Positions 3,026-39,900 of a stretch of DNA of 40,478 nucleotides are shown piece by piece (the stretch's first letter is position 1; each line of letters starts with the position of its first letter). Where the stretch lies: the sequence record PQ476010.1. One strand, given 5' to 3'. The notes under the pieces were generated by a model, which saw only the letters and a list, made by a program, of their open reading frames with translations, was not told the DNA's origin and did no database searches. Both the position numbers and the translations under genes were made by a program. Origin of the DNA: Escherichia phage PhiNW-B1.

Positions 3026-3048
3026 ACTTAACTATCACTATAGGGAAG
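3026..3048 (+). promoter_or_regulatory. phage RNAP promoter (phiOR-like), +1 G at 3043
   Basis: ACTTAACTATCACTATAGGGAAG matches the 23-bp consensus repeated 11 times in the window; located between gene 19 and 19.5 as phiOR is in T7. Confidence 0.75.
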
Positions 3049-3494: not shown

Positions 3495-3535
3495 CTAAGG
3501 TCAGTTCATAGCTGACGCTACTCTACTGACCTTAG
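3495..3535 (+). promoter_or_regulatory. hairpin (10-bp perfect stem CTAAGGTCAG/CTGACCTTAG) downstream of 19.5
   Basis: arms 3495-3504 and 3526-3535 are exact reverse complements, 21-nt loop. Confidence 0.4.
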
Positions 3536-3698: not shown

Positions 3699-3915
3699 TC
3701 TCACAGTTCAAGAACCTCAAGTCTCCCCATAGGCCCTCTTTAAGTCCAGACCAAATGCCCTACCAGTTACTGCTCCTTGCAGTCACAGCCAGTCTATCAT
3801 AAGGTTGGACCGATGGTCAAGACGTTAGGTCGACGATAGGTCTAGGCTATGGCTTAGGGAAGGACGATAGGTGGTGACTATTGGTCTGTCTTTGAGTCTC
3901 TATCTGTATCAGACC
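3699..3915 (+). repeat. putative terminal-repeat segment at the concatemer junction (single copy here); boundaries approximate
   Basis: starts TCTCACAGT...TCTCCCCATAGG resembling the T7 left end TCTCACAGTG...TTCCCCCATAGG by recall; flanked by short-repeat arrays on both sides; contains TATCTGTAT near its end. Confidence 0.45.
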
Positions 3916-6164: not shown

Positions 6165-6187
6165 ACTTAACTATCACTATAGGACTC
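6165..6187 (+). promoter_or_regulatory. phage RNAP promoter immediately upstream of the RNAP gene, +1 G at 6182
   Basis: ACTTAACTATCACTATAGGACTC matches the window consensus. Confidence 0.65.
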
Positions 6188-6256
6188 AAGGTCTAAGACT
6201 CCAAGTGAAAGACCAAAGAGACTTTAAGTGAAAGACTAATAACAAGGACTTTAAGT

Positions 6257-8938
6257 ATGAGCGTCATCTCTATTGACAAACACGACTTCTCTGATGTGTC
6301 GAACGCCATTGAGCCGTTTAACCTGCTGGCTGACCACTACGGGCAAGACCTTGCAGTCAAACAGCTTCAGCTTGAGCATGAGGCCTACACTGAAGGTGAG
6401 CGACGTTTCATCAAGAACCTTGAGCGTCAGACTGAGCGCGGGGAACTGGCAGACAATCAGGTCGCCAAGCCTTTGATGCAGACTCTGGTTCCTAAGATTG
6501 CGCAAGCCGTCAAGGAGTGGCACGAAGGTCCAGACGGGAAGCTGTCAACCTCTCGTCCTAGCGTAGCGTTCACCATGTTGAGCACTGAAGAGAAGGCCGT
6601 CAAGGACCGCTCTCTTCGCATCTCCTGCGAGTCTGCTGCGGTTATCATACTGAAGGTCATCCTCTCCAAGCTGGTCAAGCCTGAAGGGATACCGATTACA
6701 CCGATGGCCTCCGCGATAGGTCGCACACTTGAGGACGAAATCCGCTTCGGTCGCATCCGTGACAAGGAGAAGGAGCACTTCAAGAAGGCGATAGCTGAGA
6801 ACTTGAACAAGCGAGCTGGGGCATCCTACAAGAAAGCCTACATGCAAGCGGTCGAGGCCTCCATGTTGGAGCAAGGACAACTGGAAGATGCGTGGGGAAC
6901 TTGGAGTCCGACCGAGGCTGTCCACGTTGGCATCAAGATGCTTGAGATTGTCATCCAGTCAACACAACTGGTCGAGCTTAAGCGGTACGGTGCTGGCAAT
7001 GCAGCGGCTGACGTAGAGATGGTCCACCTGTCAGACTTCTGGGTCAAGAAGATGGCACAACGCGGATTTAGCCTTGCGGGTATCGCCCCAGTCTACCAAC
7101 CTTGCGTCGTTCCACCTAAGCCGTGGACCGGTGTCGTAGGCGGTGGGTACTGGGCCAAAGGTCGCAGACCATTACCACTGATTCGCTTAGGGTCTAAGTC
7201 TGCGGTGGCACGTTACGAAGACGTGTATATGCCTGAAGTCTATGACGCTGTTAACATCATCCAGAATACACCTTGGAAAGTGAACAAGAAGGTTCTGGAC
7301 GTGGTGAACATGGTCGAGAAGTTGAACAACACGCCTATTGATGACATCCCTCAGATGGAGCCACTGAAGCCTGAAGAATATGCGGGTGAGACTGAAGAGG
7401 AACTCAAGGCGTGGAAGAAAGCGGCTGCTGGTATCTATCGCCGCGAGAAGGCCAGACAGTCACGCAGATTGTCACTGAGCTTTATCGTGAACCAAGCTAA
7501 CAAGTTCTCTCAGTTCAAGGCCATCTGGTTCCCGTACAACATGGACTGGCGCGGTAGAGTCTACGCTGTGCCGATGTTCAACCCTCAGGGTAACGACATG
7601 CAGAAGGGTCTCCTGACTCTGGCAGTCGGTAAGCCTATTGGTGCTGATGGTTTCAGATGGCTGAAGGTCCACGGTGCAAACTGTGCGGGTATTGATAAAG
7701 TAACCTTCGAGGAGCGCATCAAGTGGGTGGAAGATAACCACGACAACATCATGGCTACCGCTAAGGCACCGATGGACAGCATTGAGTGGTGGGGTAAGTT
7801 AGACTCTCCGTTCTGCTTCCTAGCGTTCTGCTTCGAGTATGCTGGCGTAATGCATCACGGATTGTCTTACTCCTGCTCGCTGCCGATAGCATTCGATGGG
7901 TCCTGCTCTGGGATTCAGCACTTTAGCGCGATGCTTCGTGATCACATCGGTGGACATGCAGTAAACCTGACGCCTTCCGGTAAGGTCCAAGACATCTACC
8001 GCATCGTGTCTGACCGCATTGAGGAAGAGCTTAAAGTCCTGCTGGTTAACGGCACGGACAACGAGATGGTAACTCACGAGGACAAGAAAACTGGTGAGAT
8101 TACCGAGCGTCTCAAGCTGGGGACACGAGAGCTGGCCCGTCAGTGGCTGACCTACGGTATGTCACGAAAGGTCACTAAGCGTTCGGTCATGACTCTGGCC
8201 TACGGGTCGAAAGAGTACGGCTTCGCAGACCAAGTTTACGAGGACATCGTGATGCCAGCGATTGACTCAGGGTCTGGCGCTATGTTCACTGAACCAAGCC
8301 AAGCATCTCGCTTCATGGCTAAGATGATTTGGGAAGCTGTGAGTGTGACCGTAGTTGCTGCGGTTGACGCGATGAAATGGCTTCAGGGTGCTGCCAAGCT
8401 GCTGGCGGCTGAAGTGAAGGACAAGAAGACGGGTGAAATCCTGAAGCCTTGCCTTCCGGTACACTGGGTCACACCTGATGGGTTCCCGGTCTGGCAGGAA
8501 TACCGCAAGAAGGATACCACTCGTCTGAATCTGATGTTCTTAGGGTCATTCAACCTTCAGCCTACCGTCAACAAAGGCACGAAGAAAGAGCTGGATAAAC
8601 ACAAGCAGGAGTCAGGCATTAGCCCGAACTTCGTCCACTCACAAGATGGTAGCCACCTGCGCAAGACTGTAGTCCACACGCATCGCAAGTATGGCGTGAT
8701 GTCATTCGCAGTGATTCATGATAGCTTCGGGACCATCCCGGCTGACGCTGAATATCTGTTCCGTGGTGTCCGTGAGACGATGGTCGAGACCTACCGCGAC
8801 AACGATGTGCTGCTTGACTTCTACGAGCAGTTTGAATACCAGCTTCACGAGAGCCAGCGCAATAAGTTGCCAGAGCTTCCGAAGAAAGGTAAACTGAATA
8901 TCGAAGACATCTTGTCTTCAGACTTTGCATTCGCTTAA
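6257..8938 (+). CDS. 1: single-subunit DNA-dependent RNA polymerase (T7 gp1 homolog)
   Basis: 893 aa; extensive identity by recall to T7 RNAP (AIWFPYNMDWRGRVYA, NPQGNDM.KGLLTLA, DGSCSGIQHFSAMLRD, HDSFGTIPADA, C-terminal FAFA). Confidence 0.98.
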   Translation: MSVISIDKHDFSDVSNAIEPFNLLADHYGQDLAVKQLQLEHEAYTEGERRFIKNLERQTERGELADNQVAKPLMQTLVPKIAQAVKEWHEGPDGKLSTSRPSVAFTMLSTEEKAVKDRSLRISCESAAVIILKVILSKLVKPEGIPITPMASAIGRTLEDEIRFGRIRDKEKEHFKKAIAENLNKRAGASYKKAYMQAVEASMLEQGQLEDAWGTWSPTEAVHVGIKMLEIVIQSTQLVELKRYGAGNAAADVEMVHLSDFWVKKMAQRGFSLAGIAPVYQPCVVPPKPWTGVVGGGYWAKGRRPLPLIRLGSKSAVARYEDVYMPEVYDAVNIIQNTPWKVNKKVLDVVNMVEKLNNTPIDDIPQMEPLKPEEYAGETEEELKAWKKAAAGIYRREKARQSRRLSLSFIVNQANKFSQFKAIWFPYNMDWRGRVYAVPMFNPQGNDMQKGLLTLAVGKPIGADGFRWLKVHGANCAGIDKVTFEERIKWVEDNHDNIMATAKAPMDSIEWWGKLDSPFCFLAFCFEYAGVMHHGLSYSCSLPIAFDGSCSGIQHFSAMLRDHIGGHAVNLTPSGKVQDIYRIVSDRIEEELKVLLVNGTDNEMVTHEDKKTGEITERLKLGTRELARQWLTYGMSRKVTKRSVMTLAYGSKEYGFADQVYEDIVMPAIDSGSGAMFTEPSQASRFMAKMIWEAVSVTVVAAVDAMKWLQGAAKLLAAEVKDKKTGEILKPCLPVHWVTPDGFPVWQEYRKKDTTRLNLMFLGSFNLQPTVNKGTKKELDKHKQESGISPNFVHSQDGSHLRKTVVHTHRKYGVMSFAVIHDSFGTIPADAEYLFRGVRETMVETYRDNDVLLDFYEQFEYQLHESQRNKLPELPKKGKLNIEDILSSDFAFA

Positions 8939-20901: not shown

Positions 20902-20953
20902 GTCTAACCGATAGTCATATCCTATCAATCCAACAGTCATCCATAGGTGAAAT

Positions 20954-20976
20954 ACTAAACTATCACTATAGGGACT
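20954..20976 (+). promoter_or_regulatory. phage RNAP promoter (phi6.5-like), +1 G at 20971
   Basis: ACTAAACTATCACTATAGGGACT. Confidence 0.75.
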
Positions 20977-23886: not shown

Positions 23887-24768
23887 ATGTCTCAATCAGT
23901 TTATGCCGAGTTCGGCGTTAGCTCTAATGCAATCACTGGTTCCGTTGAGGACCTGAACGAACACCAGAAGTCTATGCTTGAACAGGACGTAGCTGTTCGT
24001 GATGGCGATGACGCTATTACCTTCAAGCAACTGGAAGCCGAAAACGAAGAGGCGACCGAAGAAGACGAGAACGTCGAAGAGGCTGAAGGTGAAGACCACG
24101 AGTCCGATGACGAAGAGTCTGAGACAGATGGTGAGCAGCCTGAGTTCATTGAACTGGGTGATGCACCTAAAGAGCTGACCGAAAGTGTCACCGCTCTGGA
24201 TGAAAACGAAGCTGCATTTGACGACATGGTGTCTTCTGCTGTAGAAGCCGGCAAGGTCACTGCTGATGAAATTACCGCTATCAAGGCTGAATACGCCAAG
24301 GACGGTAAGCTGTCTGACGCATCCTACGCTAAGTTGCAGGAAGCAGGTTACACCAAGCGCTTCGTAGATTCGTTTGTCCGTGGTCAGGAAGCTCTGGCTG
24401 AACAGTATGCTGCTGGTGTGGTTCGCTACGCTGGTGGTGCTGAACAGTTTAATCGCATCCTGTCACACCTTGAGTCAAACGACCCATCAACTCGTGAAGC
24501 ACTGGAAGCTGCTATCGTTCGCAAGGACATTGCTACTACCAAAGCTCTGCTGAATCTGGCTGGCAAGACTCTGGGTAAAGCTGTGGGTGTTAAACCACAG
24601 CGTACCATCACCACTCAGGCTAAACCTGTGGTAGCACCTAAGGCTCCTCAGACAGAAGCATTCAGCTCAAAGTCTGACATGATTAAGGCTATGAGTGACC
24701 CGCGATACCTGCGTGACGCTAAATACACGATGGAAGTTCGCGCTAAGGTAGCTGCCTCAAGCCTGTAG
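23887..24768 (+). CDS. 9: capsid assembly scaffolding protein (T7 gp9 homolog)
   Basis: VYA.FGV.S....GSVE, acidic middle, GYTK.F.DS..RGQEAL.EQY, MIKAMSDPRY; start at ATG 23887 with AAGGAG upstream (track start 23812 lacks RBS). Confidence 0.9.
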   Translation: MSQSVYAEFGVSSNAITGSVEDLNEHQKSMLEQDVAVRDGDDAITFKQLEAENEEATEEDENVEEAEGEDHESDDEESETDGEQPEFIELGDAPKELTESVTALDENEAAFDDMVSSAVEAGKVTADEITAIKAEYAKDGKLSDASYAKLQEAGYTKRFVDSFVRGQEALAEQYAAGVVRYAGGAEQFNRILSHLESNDPSTREALEAAIVRKDIATTKALLNLAGKTLGKAVGVKPQRTITTQAKPVVAPKAPQTEAFSSKSDMIKAMSDPRYLRDAKYTMEVRAKVAASSL

Positions 24769-24769
24769 G

Positions 24770-24792
24770 ACTAAACTATCACTATAGGGATA
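24770..24792 (+). promoter_or_regulatory. phage RNAP promoter (phi10-like), +1 G at 24787
   Basis: ACTAAACTATCACTATAGGGATA; about 100 nt upstream of capsid gene. Confidence 0.8.
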
Positions 24793-24894
24793 CCAAGAGA
24801 TAGACTCAAGGTTTCCCTATTACTTCAGTCCATACGGATTGGGCATACAGTAAGTAATAAACTTTATCTTTCAATTGAATAGGAGAATTATCAT

Positions 24895-25938
24895 ATGGCA
24901 AACGTTCCGGGTCAGAAAATTGGTACAGACCAAGGTAAAGGCAAATCCAGTTCCGACGCTCTGGCGTTGTTCCTGAAGGTATTTGCTGGTGAAGTCCTGA
25001 CCGCATTCACTCGCCGCTCTGTAACTGCTGACAAGCATATTGTCCGTACCATTCAGAACGGTAAGTCTGCTCAGTTCCCTGTCATGGGTCGCACCTCTGG
25101 TGTGTATCTGGCTCCTGGTGAGCGACTGTCCGATAAGCGTAAAGGTATCAAACATACCGAGAAAGTGATTACCATTGATGGTCTGCTGACTGCCGATGTG
25201 ATGATTTTCGACATTGAAGACGCGATGAACCACTATGACGTGGCTGGCGAGTACTCCAACCAGTTGGGTGAGGCTCTGGCTATCGCTGCCGATGGTGCGG
25301 TTCTGGCTGAAATGGCTCTCCTGTGTAACCTCCCGGCTGCATCCAACGAGAACATTGCCGGTCTGGGCACTGCGTCAGTACTTGAAGTTGGTACTAAAGC
25401 CGCCCTGAACACTCCGGCTAAGCTGGGTGAAGCAATCATCGGTCAACTGACCATTGCTCGTGCGAAGCTGACCTCCAACTACGTTCCTGCTGGCGACCGT
25501 TACTTCTACACCACGCCGGACAACTACTCTGCAATCCTCGCGGCTCTGATGCCGAACGCTGCTAACTATGCTGCGCTGATTGATCCAGAGACTGGTAACA
25601 TCCGTAACGTGATGGGCTTCGTTGTTGTTGAAGTCCCGCATCTGGTACAGGGTGGCGCTGGTGAGACTCGTGGTGACGATGGCATCTCTATCGCTTCCGG
25701 TCAGAAACACGCATTCCCGGCAACTGCTACTGGCGACGTTAAAGTTGCTATGGACAACGTTGTGGGTCTGTTCTCTCACCGTTCTGCTGTGGGTACTGTG
25801 AAGCTGCGTGACTTGGCGCTGGAACGCGACCGTGACGTCGATGCTCAGGGTGACCTGATTGTGGGTAAATACGCTATGGGTCACGGTGGTCTGCGTCCTG
25901 AAGCGGCTGGCGCACTGGTTTTCAGCCCAGCGGCGTAA
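24895..25938 (+). CDS. 10A: major capsid protein 10A
   Basis: 347 aa (T7 10A is 345); position after scaffold; strong RBS; followed by Tphi-like terminator. Confidence 0.97.
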   Translation: MANVPGQKIGTDQGKGKSSSDALALFLKVFAGEVLTAFTRRSVTADKHIVRTIQNGKSAQFPVMGRTSGVYLAPGERLSDKRKGIKHTEKVITIDGLLTADVMIFDIEDAMNHYDVAGEYSNQLGEALAIAADGAVLAEMALLCNLPAASNENIAGLGTASVLEVGTKAALNTPAKLGEAIIGQLTIARAKLTSNYVPAGDRYFYTTPDNYSAILAALMPNAANYAALIDPETGNIRNVMGFVVVEVPHLVQGGAGETRGDDGISIASGQKHAFPATATGDVKVAMDNVVGLFSHRSAVGTVKLRDLALERDRDVDAQGDLIVGKYAMGHGGLRPEAAGALVFSPAA

Positions 25939-26072: not shown

Positions 26073-26112
26073 AAACCCCTTGGGTGCCTTCGGGTGCTTG
26101 AGGGGTTTTTTG
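26073..26112 (+). terminator. Tphi-like late terminator
   Basis: long hairpin AACCCCTTGGGTGCC-TTCG-GGTGCTTGAGGGGTT with UUCG tetraloop (26089-26092) then TTTTTTG; resembles T7 Tphi by recall. Confidence 0.8.
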
Positions 26113-26126
26113 CTTAAGGAGGGACT

Positions 26127-26227: not shown

Positions 26228-26794
26228 ATGGCTCAATACATTCCACTGAATGCTAACGATGACTTAGATGCCATCAACGATATGTTAGCTGCTATCGGTG
26301 AACCAGCAGTCCTACAGCTTGACGAAGGCAATGCTGACGTCTCGAATGCTCAACGTATCCTGCATCGTGTCAATCGTCAGGTCCAAGCTAAAGGATGGAA
26401 CTTTAACATTAATGAAGCTGCTGTCCTGACACCTGATGTCCAAGACAATAGGATTCGATTCTTGCCGTCATACCTTCGTATAATGACCGCTGGGGCCACC
26501 AGCTACTACAGCAACATGGGTGGATACCTGTACGACCTATCCACTCAGTCAACCACTTTCACCGACCCTATCACAGTAGAGCTTGTGGAGATGAAGCCAT
26601 TCTCCGAGATGCCTGTGGTCTTCAGGGACTACATCGTCACTAAAGCTAGCCGTGAGTTCAACGCTAAGTTCTTCGGTAGCCTAGAGTCTGAACTGTACCT
26701 TCGTGAGCAGGAAGCAGAACTCTATCAGCAGGTCATGGAATACGAGATGGATACTGGTCGCTACAACATGATGTCCGACATTGGGAGGGACTAA
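26228..26794 (+). CDS. 11: tail tubular protein A (T7 gp11 homolog)
   Basis: 188 aa; position and size; RBS TAAGGAG. Confidence 0.9.
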   Translation: MAQYIPLNANDDLDAINDMLAAIGEPAVLQLDEGNADVSNAQRILHRVNRQVQAKGWNFNINEAAVLTPDVQDNRIRFLPSYLRIMTAGATSYYSNMGGYLYDLSTQSTTFTDPITVELVEMKPFSEMPVVFRDYIVTKASREFNAKFFGSLESELYLREQEAELYQQVMEYEMDTGRYNMMSDIGRD

Positions 26795-29151
26795 TGCCGC
26801 TTATTACGCAAAGCATAAAAAATCTTAAGGGTGGCATTAGCCAACAGCCTGACATCCTGAGGTTCTCAGACCAAGGAGAGGCACAGGTTAACTGCTGGTC
26901 ATCCGAGAGTGATGGACTCCAGAAGCGCCCACCTACAGTCTTCAAGCGACGTCTTAACATCGACGTTGGGAGCAACCCTAAGTTCCACCTGATTAACCGT
27001 GACGAGCATGAGCAGTATTACATCGTGTTCAATGGGTCCAACATTCAGGTAGTTGACTTGAGTGGTAATCAATACTCAGTGTCAGGTGCTGTAGACTACG
27101 TTAAGTCCTCCAACCCACGAGATGACATCCGTGTCGTTACCGTGGCAGACTATACGTTCGTCGTTAACCGTAAGGTTGTCGTCAAAGGTGGAAGCGAGAA
27201 GTCACACTCTGGTTATAACCGCAAAGCACGAGCTTTAATTAACCTACGTGGTGGACAGTATGGTCGAACCCTTAAGGTGGGAATCAACGGTGGCGTTAAG
27301 GTCTCGCATAAGCTACCAGCAGGTAATGATGCCGAGAATGACCCGCCTAAGGTGGACGCTCAAGCCATTGGTGCAGCTCTGAGAGACCTTCTTGTTACTG
27401 CCTACCCTACCTTCACGTTTGACCTTGGGTCTGGATTCCTGCTAATCACAGCTCCTTCAGGTACCGATATTAACTCAGTGGAGACGGAGGATGGCTACGC
27501 TAACCAGCTAATAAGCCCAGTCCTAGACACTGTGCAGACAATCTCTAAACTACCTCTTGCCGCTCCTAATGGGTATATCATTAAGATTCAAGGTGAGACA
27601 AACAGTAGCGCCGATGAATACTACGTGATGTATGACTCCAACACTAAGACGTGGAAGGAGACAGTGGAGCCGGGAGTTGTCACTGGGTTCGATAACACCA
27701 CAATGCCACACGCTCTGGTACGACAATCTGATGGCTCCTTTGAGTTCAAGGCTCTGGACTGGTCTAAGCGTGGTGCTGGTAATGATGACACAAACCCTAT
27801 GCCTAGCTTCATGGATGCTACGATTAACGATGTGTTCTTCTACAGGAACAGGCTAGGGTTCTTGTCAGGCGAGAACGTAATCATGAGCCGTTCAGCAAGC
27901 TACTTTGCTTTCTTCCCTAAGAGTGTGGCGACACTGAGTGATGATGACCCTATTGATGTAGCTGTAAGTCACCCTAGAATCTCAATCCTTAAGTATGCCG
28001 TTCCGTTTAGCGAGCAGCTACTACTTTGGTCAGATGAGGTGCAGTTCGTGATGACAAGCTCAGGGGTCCTTACCTCGAAGTCTATCCAGCTTGATGTAGG
28101 CTCAGAGTTTGCCTTAGGAGATAATGCCAGACCATTCGCTGTAGGACGCTCAGTCTTCTTCTCAGCGCCTCGTGGGTCATTCACCAGCATTAAGCGATAC
28201 TTCGCTGTAGCAGATGTGTCTGACGTGAAGGATGCCGATGATACCACTGGTCACGTACTATCCTATATCCCTAACGGGGTGTTTGACATTCAGGGAACAG
28301 GGACTGAGAACTACATCTGCGTCAACTCTACAGGTGCATACAACCGAATCTACATCTACAAGTTCTTGTTTAAGGACGGCGTACAACTTCAAGCCTCTTG
28401 GTCGCACTGGGAGTTCCCTAAAGCTGATAAGATTCTGGCGTCTGCGTCGATTGGCTCTACCATGTTCATTGTTCGTCAGCACCAAGGCGGCGTGGACCTT
28501 GAGCACCTTAAGTTCATCAAGGAGGCAACTGACTTTCCGTCAGAGCCATATAGACTCCACGTTGACTCCAAGGTGTCTATGGTAATCCCAATTGGCTCAT
28601 ATAACGCTGACACCTATGAGACTACGGTCGACATTGGTTCTGCTTATGGTGGAAACGCTCCGTCTCCCGGTCGGTACTATCTGATTGACAGTCAGGGTGC
28701 CTATGTGGACCTTGGTGAACTGACCGACATCTCAACTGTGGCTATACTCAATGGCGATTGGTCGGGACGTACAGTGTTCATCGGACGGTCTTATCTGATG
28801 TCCTACAAGTTCTCACGGTTCCTGATTAAGATTGAAGATGAGAGTGGCACTCAGTCTGAAGACACTGGACGTCTACAACTTCGCAGGGCTTGGGTCAACT
28901 ACAAGGACACTGGCGCTCTTAGACTCATTGTCAGAAACGGTGAGCGGGAGTTCGTGAACACCTTTAATGGGTACACCCTTGGTCAGCAAACCATCGGGAC
29001 TACCAACATTGGGGATGGACAGTATCGCTTCGCTATGAATGGTAACGCATTAACCACGAGCCTAACCTTAGAGTCAGACTATCCTACCCCAGTGTCCATC
29101 GTTGGGTGTGGCTGGGAGGCGTCATACGCTAAGAAAGCTCGTTCCGTCTAA
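26794..29151 (+). CDS. 12: tail tubular protein B (T7 gp12 homolog)
   Basis: 785 aa (T7 794); N-terminus MPLITQSIKNLKGGISQQP resembles T7 gp12 by recall. Confidence 0.95.
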   Translation: MPLITQSIKNLKGGISQQPDILRFSDQGEAQVNCWSSESDGLQKRPPTVFKRRLNIDVGSNPKFHLINRDEHEQYYIVFNGSNIQVVDLSGNQYSVSGAVDYVKSSNPRDDIRVVTVADYTFVVNRKVVVKGGSEKSHSGYNRKARALINLRGGQYGRTLKVGINGGVKVSHKLPAGNDAENDPPKVDAQAIGAALRDLLVTAYPTFTFDLGSGFLLITAPSGTDINSVETEDGYANQLISPVLDTVQTISKLPLAAPNGYIIKIQGETNSSADEYYVMYDSNTKTWKETVEPGVVTGFDNTTMPHALVRQSDGSFEFKALDWSKRGAGNDDTNPMPSFMDATINDVFFYRNRLGFLSGENVIMSRSASYFAFFPKSVATLSDDDPIDVAVSHPRISILKYAVPFSEQLLLWSDEVQFVMTSSGVLTSKSIQLDVGSEFALGDNARPFAVGRSVFFSAPRGSFTSIKRYFAVADVSDVKDADDTTGHVLSYIPNGVFDIQGTGTENYICVNSTGAYNRIYIYKFLFKDGVQLQASWSHWEFPKADKILASASIGSTMFIVRQHQGGVDLEHLKFIKEATDFPSEPYRLHVDSKVSMVIPIGSYNADTYETTVDIGSAYGGNAPSPGRYYLIDSQGAYVDLGELTDISTVAILNGDWSGRTVFIGRSYLMSYKFSRFLIKIEDESGTQSEDTGRLQLRRAWVNYKDTGALRLIVRNGEREFVNTFNGYTLGQQTIGTTNIGDGQYRFAMNGNALTTSLTLESDYPTPVSIVGCGWEASYAKKARSV

Positions 29152-29158
29152 CTTATTG

Positions 29159-29208
29159 AAGGGCCTATAGATTTACCTTAACTATCACTATAGGGACTAT
29201 AGGCCCTT
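29159..29208 (+). repeat. 12-bp perfect inverted repeat (AAGGGCCTATAG / CTATAGGCCCTT) enclosing the phi13 promoter
   Basis: arms 29159-29170 and 29197-29208 exact reverse complements; 26-nt loop contains promoter -17..+4. Confidence 0.85.
29176..29198 (+). promoter_or_regulatory. phage RNAP promoter (phi13-like), +1 G at 29193
   Basis: CCTTAACTATCACTATAGGGACT. Confidence 0.75.
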
Positions 29209-29227
29209 AAGGTTATAAGGAGACTTT

Positions 29228-29698
29228 ATGTATATTCGCAAGGCTACGGAACCAGATGTCCACTACTTTCTGTGGCATCTTTCAGCAGATGATGTTAATG
29301 AGTGCAAAGCAAACTATGGGTCAACCGTTGGTCTCTCTGAGAGACTGCTTAAGCATCTATCTCCTTCATCTGTGGTTTTAACGAACTGTGTAGGCGAAGT
29401 GTTTGCCTATGGTGGAAACCAAGGGGATAACGTATGGTTCTTGACTTCAAGTCTTGTCGAAAGGTTAAGTCCGAAAGACAAGCGGGAGTTCATTCAGCGC
29501 ATCTCTGAGTACAGGGACTTAATGTTAGACCAATACGGGACCATCTGGAACTACGTGTGGTCAGGCAATAAGTCTCACATTAGATTCTTGCGGTTACTGG
29601 GAGCTAAGTTCCACCATGATGCGACTATCAGTCCAGTAACAGGTGAGCGTTTTCAATTATTCACAATCTCTAAGGAGGACGTATGTGCGAACCCGTAA
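29228..29698 (+). CDS. 13: internal virion protein (gp13-position)
   Basis: 156-aa ORF after phi13 with RBS AAGGAGA; position-based. Confidence 0.75.
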   Translation: MYIRKATEPDVHYFLWHLSADDVNECKANYGSTVGLSERLLKHLSPSSVVLTNCVGEVFAYGGNQGDNVWFLTSSLVERLSPKDKREFIQRISEYRDLMLDQYGTIWNYVWSGNKSHIRFLRLLGAKFHHDATISPVTGERFQLFTISKEDVCANP

Positions 29699-30270
29699 GT
29701 ATCGGTTTAGGTATCATGGCTGTAGCCGGGGCCACTATGTCCGCATCTCAACAGGCCAAAGCTGAGGGTGCTGCTATCGACGCTCAGAACAGACAGGCTC
29801 AGGAAATGGTTAAGCAGATGAACTACTCTGACGCCAACCTGAAGATGCAGGAGCGAGACCTGAAGGAGCAGCAGATGGCTGAACTGACAGAGACCACGTT
29901 AAATGGTATCCGCAATCAGGGTATGGTCCGAGCTGCTGTAGCTGAGTCCGGTCTGGAAGGCAACTCTATGGACAGGATTGAACGTCAGGTCGCTGGAGAC
30001 ACGGTCAAGGAGAGAGCCGGGATTACCGAAAGCTACAACCGTGACTATGCGGCTATCTTCGGGAACCGTATCGCCAACATTGAGAACACCAAGTCTGCTA
30101 TCCGTGGTCAAGGTAAAATCATCAAGACCAGCCCACTAGCTCATGCACTTAATGTTGCTAACGCCGGGATGCAGGGGTACGCTGCTGGTAAGTCAATATC
30201 TGGGGCATCAAGCTCTGGTGGTTCTGCACCGATTAGTGCTGCTAAAGGCGCACCTACAGGTCATAGCTAA
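29683..30270 (+). CDS. 14: internal virion protein A (T7 gp14 homolog)
   Basis: 195 aa (T7 196); MC...I..G..A.S..Q..A and overall pattern similar by recall. Confidence 0.85.
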   Translation: MCEPVSIGLGIMAVAGATMSASQQAKAEGAAIDAQNRQAQEMVKQMNYSDANLKMQERDLKEQQMAELTETTLNGIRNQGMVRAAVAESGLEGNSMDRIERQVAGDTVKERAGITESYNRDYAAIFGNRIANIENTKSAIRGQGKIIKTSPLAHALNVANAGMQGYAAGKSISGASSSGGSAPISAAKGAPTGHS

Positions 30271-36958: not shown

Positions 36959-39900
36959 ATGTCCACGATTACACAATTCCCTTCAGGAAACACTCAGTAC
37001 AGGATTGAGTTCGACTACCTAGCCAGAACGTTTGTTGTTGTTACGCTGGTGAATAGCTCTAACCCTACCCTGAACCGTGTACTGGAAGTTGGTCGAGATT
37101 ACCGATTCCTTAATCCAACGATGATTGAGATGTTGGTTGACCAATCAGGTTTCGACATCGTTCGTATTCACCGTCAGACTGGAACTGACTTAGTGGTAGA
37201 CTTCAGGAATGGCTCAGTGTTGACAGCTAGTGACCTGACCAATTCAGAGCTTCAGGCTATCCATATTGCAGAAGAAGGTCGAGACCAAACGGTTGACTTA
37301 GCGAAGGAATATGCCGATGCTGCTGGTAGCTCTGCTGGCAACGCTAAGGATAGCGAGGACGAAGCACGCCGAATCGCTGAGAGTATCAGGGCAGCTGGTC
37401 TAATTGGCTATATGACCCGTCGCTCCTTCGAGAAAGGCTACAACGTTACAACATGGAGCGAGGTCCTGCTATGGGAAGAGGATGGTGATTATTACCGCTG
37501 GGATGGTACGCTTCCAAAGAACGTTCCTGCTGGTTCAACTCCTGAAACTTCCGGTGGGATTGGATTAGGTGCGTGGGTTAGTGTTGGTGATGCTGCTTTA
37601 AGAAGTCAGATTTCAAATCCTGAAGGGGCAATACTCTACCCTGAATTACATAGAGCACGCTGGCTTGATGAAAAAGATGTTCGTGGTTGGGGTGCTAAAG
37701 GGGATGGTGTCACTGATGATACAGCAGCATTAACGAGCGCATTAAACGACACACCGGTTGGACAAAAGATTAATGGCAATGGGGGAACATATAAGGTCAC
37801 ATCCCTGCCTGACATTAGTAGATTCGTCAATACTCGTTTTGTATATGAACGTATTCCTGGTCAGCCGCTTTATTATGTCTCTGAAGAATTTGTTCAAGGT
37901 GAACTGTTTAAAATAACGGACACCCCTTATTACAATGCGTGGCCACAGGATAAAGCGTTCGTTTACGATGATGTTATTTACTGCCCGTTCATGGCTGGTG
38001 ATAGACATGGGGTCAGTCGTCTGCATGTATCATGGGTTAAGTCTGGTGATGACGGTCAAACATGGTCTACTCCAGAGTGGTTAACTGATCTGCATCCAGA
38101 TTACCCTACAGTGAACTATCATTGTATGAGCATGGGTGTATGTCGCAACCGTCTGTTTGCCATGATTGAAACACGTACTTTAGCCAAGAACGCACTAACC
38201 AATTGTGCATTGTGGGATCGTCCTATGTCTCGTAGTCTGCACCTTACTGGTGGTATCACTAAGGCTGCAAATCAGCAATATGCAACAATACATGTACCAG
38301 ATCACGGACTATTCGTGGGCGATTTTGTTAACTTCTCTAATTCTGCGGTAACAGGTGTATCAGGTGATATGACTGTTGCAACGGTAATAGATAAGGACAA
38401 CTTCACGGTCCTTACACCTAACCAGCAGACTTCAGATTTGAATAACGCTGGAAAGAGTTGGCACATGGGTACTTCTTTCCATAAGTCTCCATGGCGTAAG
38501 ACAGATCTTGGTCTAATCCCTCGTGTCACAGAGGTGCATAGCTTTGCTACTATTGATAACAATGGCTTTGTTATGGGCTATCATCAAGGTGATGTAGCTC
38601 CACGAGAAGTTGGTCTTTTCTACTTCCCCGATGCTTTCAATAGCCCATCTAATTATGTTCGTCGTCAGATACCATCTGAGTATGAACCAGATGCGTCAGA
38701 GCCATGCATCAAGTACTATGACGGTGTATTATACCTTATCACTCGTGGCACTCGTGGTGACAGACTTGGAAGCTCTTTGCATCGTAGTAGAGATATAGGT
38801 CAGACTTGGGAGTCACTGAGATTTCCACATAATGTTCATCATACTACATTACCTTTTGCTAAAGTAGGGGATGACCTTATTATGTTTGGTTCAGAACGTG
38901 CAGAAAATGAATGGGAAGCAGGTGCACCAGATGATCGTTACAAGGCATCTTATCCTCGCACCTTCTATGCACGCTTGAATGTAAACAATTGGAATGCAGA
39001 TGGTATTGAATGGGTTAACATCACTGACCAGATTTATCAGGGCGGAATAGTTAACTCAGGTGTAGGTGTTGGTTCGGTAGTTGTGAAGGATAATTACATC
39101 TACTACATGTTTGGTGGAGAGGACCATTTTAACCCATGGACATATGGCGATAACTCAGCGAAAGACCCATTCAAATCGGATGGTCACCCCTCGGATTTGT
39201 ATTGCTACAAAATGAAGATTGGCCCAGACAATCGTGTTTCCAGAGATTTCAGATATGGTGCTGTACCCAACAGAGCTGTTCCCGTGTTTTTTGATACGAA
39301 TGGGATTCGCACTGTTCCTGCGCCAATGGAATTTACAGGGGATTTGGGTTTAGGTCATGTGACCCTTAGAGCCAGCACCAGTAGTAACATTCGCTCTGAA
39401 GTTTTAATGGAAGGTGAATATGGGTTTATCGGGAAGTCTATACCGACTGATAACCCGGCAGGGCAGCGCACCATATTTTGCGGGGGTGAAGGCACCAGTT
39501 CAACGACTGGCGCACAGATTACGCTTTATGGTGCAAATAACACCGACTCAAGGCGAATAGTTTACAATGGTGATGAGCATCTGTTCCAGACTGCTGATGT
39601 TAAGCCTTATAACGATAACGTCACTGCGCTTGGTGGGCCTAGCAACCGTTTCACCACTGCATACCTCGGAAGTAACCCTATTGTTACTTCTAATGGGGAG
39701 AAGAAAACAGAGCCGGTAGTTTTTGATGATGCTTTCCTAGATGCCTGGGGTGACGTTCACTACATCATGTATCAATGGTTAGATGCTGTTCAACTGAAAG
39801 GCAATGATGCTCGTATTCACTTCGGGGTTATTGCTCAGCAAATTCGTGATGTATTCATTGCACACGGTCTGATGGATGAAAACAGTACGAATTGTCGTTA

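Follow-up and report, generated by a model that had tools for sequence, protein, structure and literature searches.

Genomic context of promoter phi13

The window, here meaning the whole stretch of DNA that was analyzed, comprised the 40,478 nucleotides of Escherichia phage PhiNW-B1 (PQ476010.1). The genome is K1F/EcoDS1/Vec13-like and belongs to the genus Kayfunavirus (Studiervirinae), and over positions 28600-29800 it was 99.4% identical to Vec13 and about 93% identical to K1F. Relative to the standard T7-type map the record is circularly permuted, with nucleotide 1 of K1F falling at position 3699, and the order is the gene 18/18.5 region, gene 19 (ending at 2931), the genome end and the early region, with gene 17 as the last gene. 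The analysis was centered on the spacer between genes 12 and 13, where the phage RNA polymerase promoter phi13 is located together with the following features:

24895-25938: gene 10, open reading frame
26087-26114, plus strand: Tphi-like intrinsic terminator in the gene 10/gene 11 interval, stem CCTTCGGGTGCTTGAGGG then GTTTTTTGCT
26228-26794: gene 11, open reading frame; gene order as in K1F
26794-29151, plus strand: gene 12, open reading frame for tail tubular protein B (gene 12 or tail tube in homologous records)
29149-29153, plus strand: 5' strand of the lower helix, UAACU, including the gene-12 stop codon; pairs with 29211-29215 in the MFE structure
29159-29170, plus strand: 5' arm of the main stem, AAGGGCCTATAG, at -34 to -23 relative to the phi13 start
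29171-29196, plus strand: apical loop of 26 nt, including promoter positions -17 to +4
29176-29198, plus strand: phage RNA polymerase promoter phi13 (-17 to +6), CCTTAACTATCACTATA followed by GGGACT, with the predicted start at G29193
29187-29195 then 29196-29204, plus strand: tandem 9-nt duplication, ACTATAGGG then ACTATAGGC, read from the sequence
29197-29208, plus strand: 3' arm of the main stem, CTATAGGCCCTT, at +5 to +16 in phi13 transcripts
29209-29210, plus strand: 3' side of the internal loop, AA (MFE structure)
29211-29215, plus strand: 3' strand of the lower helix, GGUUA (MFE structure)
29217-29222, plus strand: Shine-Dalgarno sequence of gene 13, AAGGAG, outside the hairpin and unpaired in the fold
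29228-29698, plus strand: gene 13, open reading frame with homologues, internal virion protein A

The phage-promoter consensus (A/C)CT(A/T)A(A/G)CTATCACT(A/G)TA, followed by the initiating GG, was matched at 10 sites in the genome, phi13 included, all of them on the plus strand. The 23-mer of phi13 is identical to the annotated phi13 of the EcoDS1 RefSeq record, the EcoDS1 sequence being identical here, and the CR44b record also carries an annotated promoter at the phi13 position. In the K1F, EcoDS1, and CR44b records, either the promoter alone or the genes alone are annotated at this place and the enclosing hairpin is unmarked. One paper dealing with the K1F RNA polymerase was found to contain no sequence of its promoter. 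Elsewhere in the genome, a consensus phage promoter (+1 at 6182; region 6166-6262) was located 75 nt upstream of the RNA polymerase gene (6257-8938), where it would let the phage RNA polymerase transcribe its own gene.

A perfect palindrome encloses phi13

An earlier note on this DNA had described the two arms as exact reverse complements, with phi13 from -17 to +4 lying in the loop between them. Inspection of the sequence bore this out: AAGGGCCTATAG and CTATAGGCCCTT are 100% complementary over 12 nt, and the 26-nt loop contains these promoter positions when G29193 is taken as +1. Among perfect inverted repeats of at least 12 bp with a loop of 3-60 nt, the phi13 palindrome was unique in the 40,478 bases, whereas first-order Markov simulations (200 runs) yielded 0.135 such repeats on average and never more than 2. 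The palindrome is thus real and non-random. It overlaps the tandem duplication, in which the first copy, ACTATAGGG, corresponds to positions -6 to +3 of phi13 and the second, ACTATAGGC, makes up most of the 3' arm. The whole promoter lies within the loop because the 3' arm is this tandem duplicate of the start region, placed at +5 to +16.

Folding of the RNA from 29140 to 29235 gave -27.8 kcal/mol, with a z score of -2.88 against dinucleotide shuffles, and the 71-nt core alone gave -23.2 kcal/mol (z = -3.07). In the predicted structure, the 12-bp stem is joined by two shorter helices of 5 bp each, a possible one above it (CCUUA/UAGGG) and a lower one beyond a 5 x 2 internal loop, and the gene-12 stop codon TAA (29149-29151) takes part in the lower one. 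The lower helix is short and AU-rich, so that the total helix reaches only about 17-19 bp; support for it is weak to moderate, as within the genus most of its pairs were kept, with one-sided U-A to U-G changes and some broken pairs. Since the 5' arm lies upstream of the promoter, read-through RNA alone can fold. The statement of the earlier note that both arms occur only in read-through RNA therefore holds, as RNA started at G29193 carries the 3' arm alone, and the phi13-initiated RNA was predicted to be unstructured (z = +1.25). A scan of the whole genome against Rfam returned 0 matches at the gathering threshold, with no family reaching it.

The earlier note had also suggested that the hairpin could insulate or attenuate upstream transcription. 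Such a device would pause or terminate the phage RNA polymerase coming from gene 12 and make gene 13 and the genes that follow dependent on phi13, and the strong hairpin that read-through RNA forms directly upstream of gene 13 speaks for it. The element also shares with Tphi-type terminators its late intergenic location and a GC-containing RNA hairpin. However, Tphi-type terminators have a short loop and a U-run, as at 26087-26114, and the phi13 palindrome has neither: its tail after the stem is AAGGUUAUAAGG, without a U-run, and its 26-nt loop is atypical of intrinsic terminators. The homologous hairpins of T7 and T3 are also devoid of U-runs. In accordance with this, the terminator scan called the Tphi-like site (26087-26104 plus the T-run) and not the phi13 hairpin. 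Given that the stem is not followed by a U-run and that no terminator-like call was obtained at this position, attenuation is very improbable, and this part of the earlier proposal was not sustained.

Comparison with the RNase III sites R13 and R6.5

A promoter nested in a hairpin before gene 13 is a known and annotated feature of this phage group, as the cases of T3, phiYeO3-12, and T7 demonstrate. In the T3 RefSeq record (NC_003298), a stem_loop described as "RNase III recognition site R13" (25443-25480) encloses phi13 (25457-25479) in the interval between genes 12 and 13, and R6.5 is annotated as enclosing phi6.5; the phiYeO3-12 record contains a "putative RNase III site R13" around phi13. 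For T7, one source lists R13 as an RNase cleavage site, namely a weak RNase III site, citing Dunn and Studier (1983), and R6.5 is described there as a strong RNase III site. The GenBank and RefSeq feature tables of T7 list the promoters and contain no RNase III features, and a literature search for the coordinate of T7 R13 returned no relevant match. Folding of the T7 gene 12-13 spacer gave a 15-bp stem, formed by UUCUCCCUGUGGUGG and promoter positions -8 to +7 (-25.5 kcal/mol, z = -7.8). The kind of hairpin observed here is therefore already known, annotated in T3 and phiYeO3-12 and reported in T7. In annotations of this genus, the hairpin around phi13 can be labelled as the R13 counterpart.

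The likeness to R13 of T3, phiYeO3-12, and T7 begins with the position, since the PhiNW-B1 hairpin occupies the same slot between the gene-12 stop and gene 13, overlaps phi13 and encloses it with its arms. It also extends to the organization: the 5' arm lies upstream of the promoter, the stem is not followed by a U-run, and the hairpin is formed in the sense orientation by read-through RNA only, with a duplex that spans one helical turn or more and contains internal loops. The overall fold was comparable to those of T7 R13, T3 R13, and the T7 phi6.5/R6.5 region. On the other hand, the 3' arm in T7, T3, and K11-type phages consists of the promoter core and start region (-8 to +8) and the stem is imperfect, G·U pairs or internal loops being present, whereas the PhiNW-B1 stem is a perfect 12 bp.

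In its architecture, the hairpin resembled R6.5, as seen in the T7 fold and the T3 annotation. In the fold predicted for the T7 phi6.5/R6.5 region, phi6.5 lies in an apical loop of 26 nt that tops an upper stem of 10 bp (AAGGUCCCUA/UAGGGGCCUU), and below this stem come a 4 x 5 internal loop and a lower stem of 9 bp. The start region is repeated in tandem there, and the copy forms the 3' arm (AUAGGGAG then AUAGGGGC). The two elements have in common arms of 10-12 bp with an AAGG start and a CCUU end, a promoter-bearing loop of 25-26 nt, an internal loop with a lower helix, and a 3' arm made of a tandem copy of the initiation region. They differ in that R6.5 sits upstream of gene 6.5 and in that the lower helix is 9 bp in T7 and about 5 bp in PhiNW-B1. 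Judged from sequence and predicted fold, the phi13 hairpin is R13-like in position and R6.5-like in architecture, and a tandem copy of the start region became the 3' arm twice, in T7 R6.5 and in Kayfunavirus R13. With a tandem copy as the 3' arm, the pairing partner need not be the promoter's own start region. At the phi6.5 region of PhiNW-B1 itself, no significant hairpin of the R6.5 kind was found (z = -1.0).

Some peculiarities of the T7 and T3 spacers were also registered. The T7 5' arm, CUCCC(U)GUGGU, has a second potential partner in ACUACGGGAG, a segment that overlaps the Shine-Dalgarno sequence of gene 13 (positions 475-500 of L002, T7 27274-27299). The downstream T7 segment AATACGACT repeats promoter positions -16 to -8, and the MFE fold prefers the pairing with the promoter. 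The T3 record NC_003298 contains a run of 17 G at about 25495-25511 (positions 1496-1512 of L068), about 25 nt upstream of the gene-13 ATG; T3-like IMG/VR loci have GAGGGG in its place, and the run may be a sequence or assembly oddity of that record.

Conservation within Kayfunavirus

The 161-nt region was present in 221 GenBank phage records, and the comparison within the genus was based on 14 distinct Kayfunavirus versions. With regard to conservation of the palindrome in relatives, which the earlier note had put forward as a check, the result was divided: the 9-bp core GGCCTATAG/CTATAGGCC was invariant in all 14 versions, while the perfect 12-bp form was restricted to a sub-lineage. The pair G29161-C29206 was present in 5 of the 14, and most relatives had a perfect core of 9-10 bp followed by a mismatch and an extension. 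The nine core pairs never varied, and one A-to-G change (L009) keeps the pairing as G·U. Variation was seen in the columns next to the 5'-arm core and in the left half of the loop but not in the core itself, and the 3' arm was invariant in the genus. No double changes (0 among the 14 versions) were observed that would indicate covariation within the genus; taken alone, this within-genus conservation could reflect constraint on the sequence rather than on the structure.

In the gene 12-13 spacers of L013, L020, L026, and L072, the loop carried a promoter of different specificity, ATTACACCCTCACTATAGGGA or ATTTAACACTCACTATAGGGA, the former being the replacement in L013, L020, and L072. Where the loop promoter differed, the arms GGCCTATAG/CTATAGGCC and the loop length of 25-26 nt were unchanged, and these sequences suggest that one promoter was exchanged for another while the surrounding hairpin stayed as it was.

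Arm pairing across the Studiervirinae

The gene 12-13 spacers of 62 gp13-anchored IMG/VR loci and several GenBank records were then compared. In every lineage, a segment located between the gene-12 stop and position -18 was complementary either to the promoter and start region or to the segment just downstream. Pairing with the promoter core and start region was found in T7, T3, K11-type phages, L060, L030 (GTTGGGTTAGTAGTG with CACTATTAGCCCAAC), L021 (GTCCCCTATGGT with ACTATAGGGGAC), and L062 (GAGTGTCTC with GAGACACTC), and pairing just downstream in Kayfunavirus (+5 to +16) and L027 (+7 to +14). The arms fell into eight sequence classes across the lineages, all of them complementary, with a combined shuffle p of 3.9e-10, and native arm pairs averaged -22.0 kcal/mol compared to -15.1 kcal/mol for cross-lineage pairs. 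These results revealed that the pairing was kept in evolution through compensatory or wobble changes and that the 5' arm of T7-like phages follows the promoter start region, whichever sequence the latter has. A genome-wide scan of duplex energies between upstream and downstream segments was not discriminating (null mean of -13 kcal/mol, with 1.3% of random positions reaching -23.5 kcal/mol), and for this reason the analysis relied on the perfect-stem statistic and the cross-lineage tests.

The hairpins were also more stable in the sense than in the antisense orientation, with -25.5 vs. -20.7 kcal/mol in T7 and -32.0 vs. -21.0 kcal/mol in K11-type phages, a difference related to G·U pairs. As G·U pairs favor the sense strand, this bias suggests a structure formed by the RNA of rightward transcripts rather than by the DNA. 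Considered together with the pairing across lineages, the phi13 element is very probably a selected sense-RNA hairpin.

The earlier note had also considered a cruciform or a protein-binding site. In this case the palindrome would act at the level of DNA, by extrusion or by binding a dimeric protein, and modulate phi13 firing. The palindrome is indeed perfect in PhiNW-B1, and its single-stranded DNA fold reached -11.8 kcal/mol (z = -3.06). However, a 26-nt spacer makes cruciform extrusion energetically very unfavorable, and the stems of T7, K11-type, and L030-type spacers hold 2-3 G·U pairs, whose counterparts in DNA and on the opposite strand are C·A mismatches. Moreover, the arm sequences are wholly different between lineages, which fits poorly with a conserved protein site. 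With such a spacer, G·U-containing stems and unrelated arms in other lineages, the cruciform or protein-binding reading was not supported, and a DNA-level role is very improbable.

A further explanation would dispense with function and regard the hairpin as a neutral by-product of promoter-core duplication, in which inverted and tandem copies of CTATAGG arose by recombination between promoters. The presence of CTATAGG in both arms, the identity of the 3' arm as a tandem copy of -6 to +3, and the use of the same word in another hairpin of this genome (2941-2989) are compatible with it. Nevertheless, the 5' arm is invariant in the genus while neighboring intergenic positions and the loop promoter change, and the arms of other lineages, although wholly different in sequence, are still complementary, partly through G·U pairs. 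A functionless origin is thus quite improbable, and the reading as a selected RNA hairpin was retained.

Proposed processing of read-through transcripts

By analogy with R13, the likely function of the phi13 hairpin is RNase III processing, of which it would represent the Kayfunavirus version. In the proposed mechanism, late transcripts would pass the Tphi-like terminator, traverse genes 11 and 12 and read through phi13; because of this upstream terminator, genes 11 and 12 should be reached mainly by read-through, in RNA that continues over phi13. In this RNA, 29159-29170 would pair with 29197-29208, leaving the promoter sequence as a 26-nt apical loop, and the short lower helix 29149-29153/29211-29215 would form beneath the internal loop. 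Host RNase III would recognize this irregular helix and cleave it close to the 3' base, at a position predicted at about 29209-29211. This placement is based on analogy with T7 R6.5, for which the start site is described as lying upstream of the cleavage site.

After such a cut, the gene 11-12 mRNA would end in a 3' stem-loop, which we infer to be protective against 3' exonucleases; at T7 RNase III sites in general, the 3' stem-loop protects the mRNA from these enzymes. The released gene-13 mRNA would have a 5' end within about 17 nt of the 5' end made from phi13, while transcripts initiated at G29193, which are devoid of the 5' arm and predicted to be unstructured, would escape processing. 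In T7, RNase III is said to cut just 3' of the upper stem, and the cleavage positions reportedly lie at about 27281 for R13 and about 18563 for R6.5. Under the substrate rules attributed to the Nicholson laboratory, the proximal and distal boxes, whose location is counted from the cleavage site, must reportedly be free of antideterminant base pairs.

The hairpin might instead act through its structure only and be left uncut by RNase III, either by blocking 3'-5' exonucleases once the RNA has been cleaved distally or by serving as a structural spacer that uncouples the translation of genes 12 and 13. Its stability and conservation as an RNA hairpin would suit such a role, and so would a helix of less than two turns and the listing of the T7 counterpart, R13, as weakly cleaved. 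This possibility was regarded as unlikely, however, since position and architecture match annotated or reported RNase III signals, and since a protective 3' hairpin needs an event that creates a 3' end and there is no terminator at phi13. Against the favored reading, processing by RNase III, stand the short lower helix, which is broken in some relatives, the weakness of R13 in T7 and the described ability of T7 to grow without this enzyme. In view of this last point, the element is probably a fine-tuning device.

Users of orthogonal expression systems built on the K1F RNA polymerase and its promoters may also wish to note that the natural context of phi13 brings along a hairpin specific to read-through RNA. 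In a broader and distinctly unlikely generalization, promoters placed in hairpins would constitute a general "transcript-origin discriminator" of T7-like phages. If this were true, the start region or its tandem duplicate would serve as the 3' arm, so that the same DNA would encode a promoter and half of an RNA signal, and the read-through and promoter-initiated mRNAs of the same gene would differ in processing, stability or translation. In the perfect-palindrome version of Kayfunavirus, upstream transcription might then additionally modulate the firing of phi13 through DNA or nascent-RNA structure.

Other hairpins in the genome

The same design was sought at phi6.5 and phi10 of PhiNW-B1, where only weak complements of about 7 bp with non-significant folds were detected. 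The imperfect complements of the promoter core were CCTGTAGG upstream of phi10 (24762-24794, z = -1.9) and CCATAGGTGA upstream of phi6.5 (20944-20972, z = -1.0), and they may represent chance or vestigial versions of the design.

A second strong hairpin was observed at 2941-2989, 10 nt after the stop codon of gene 19 and 54 nt upstream of a phiOR-like promoter (+1 at 3043). It is composed of the arms TAACTATAGGT/ACCTATAGTTA and an inner stem AACTGC/GCAGTT, with -21.7 kcal/mol and a z score of -4.65. Its arms contain the promoter-core word CTATAGG, the 5' arm resembling a degenerate promoter, and the hairpin is identical in K1F at 38767-38815. This element could be another RNase III-type or 3'-end hairpin. 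In addition, an inverted repeat whose 11-bp arms, CTAAGGTCAGT/ACTGACCTTAG, match perfectly around a 19-nt loop was located at 3495-3535, about 165 nt before position 3699, the counterpart of the left end of the K1F genome, and it is kept in K1F at 39323-39363.
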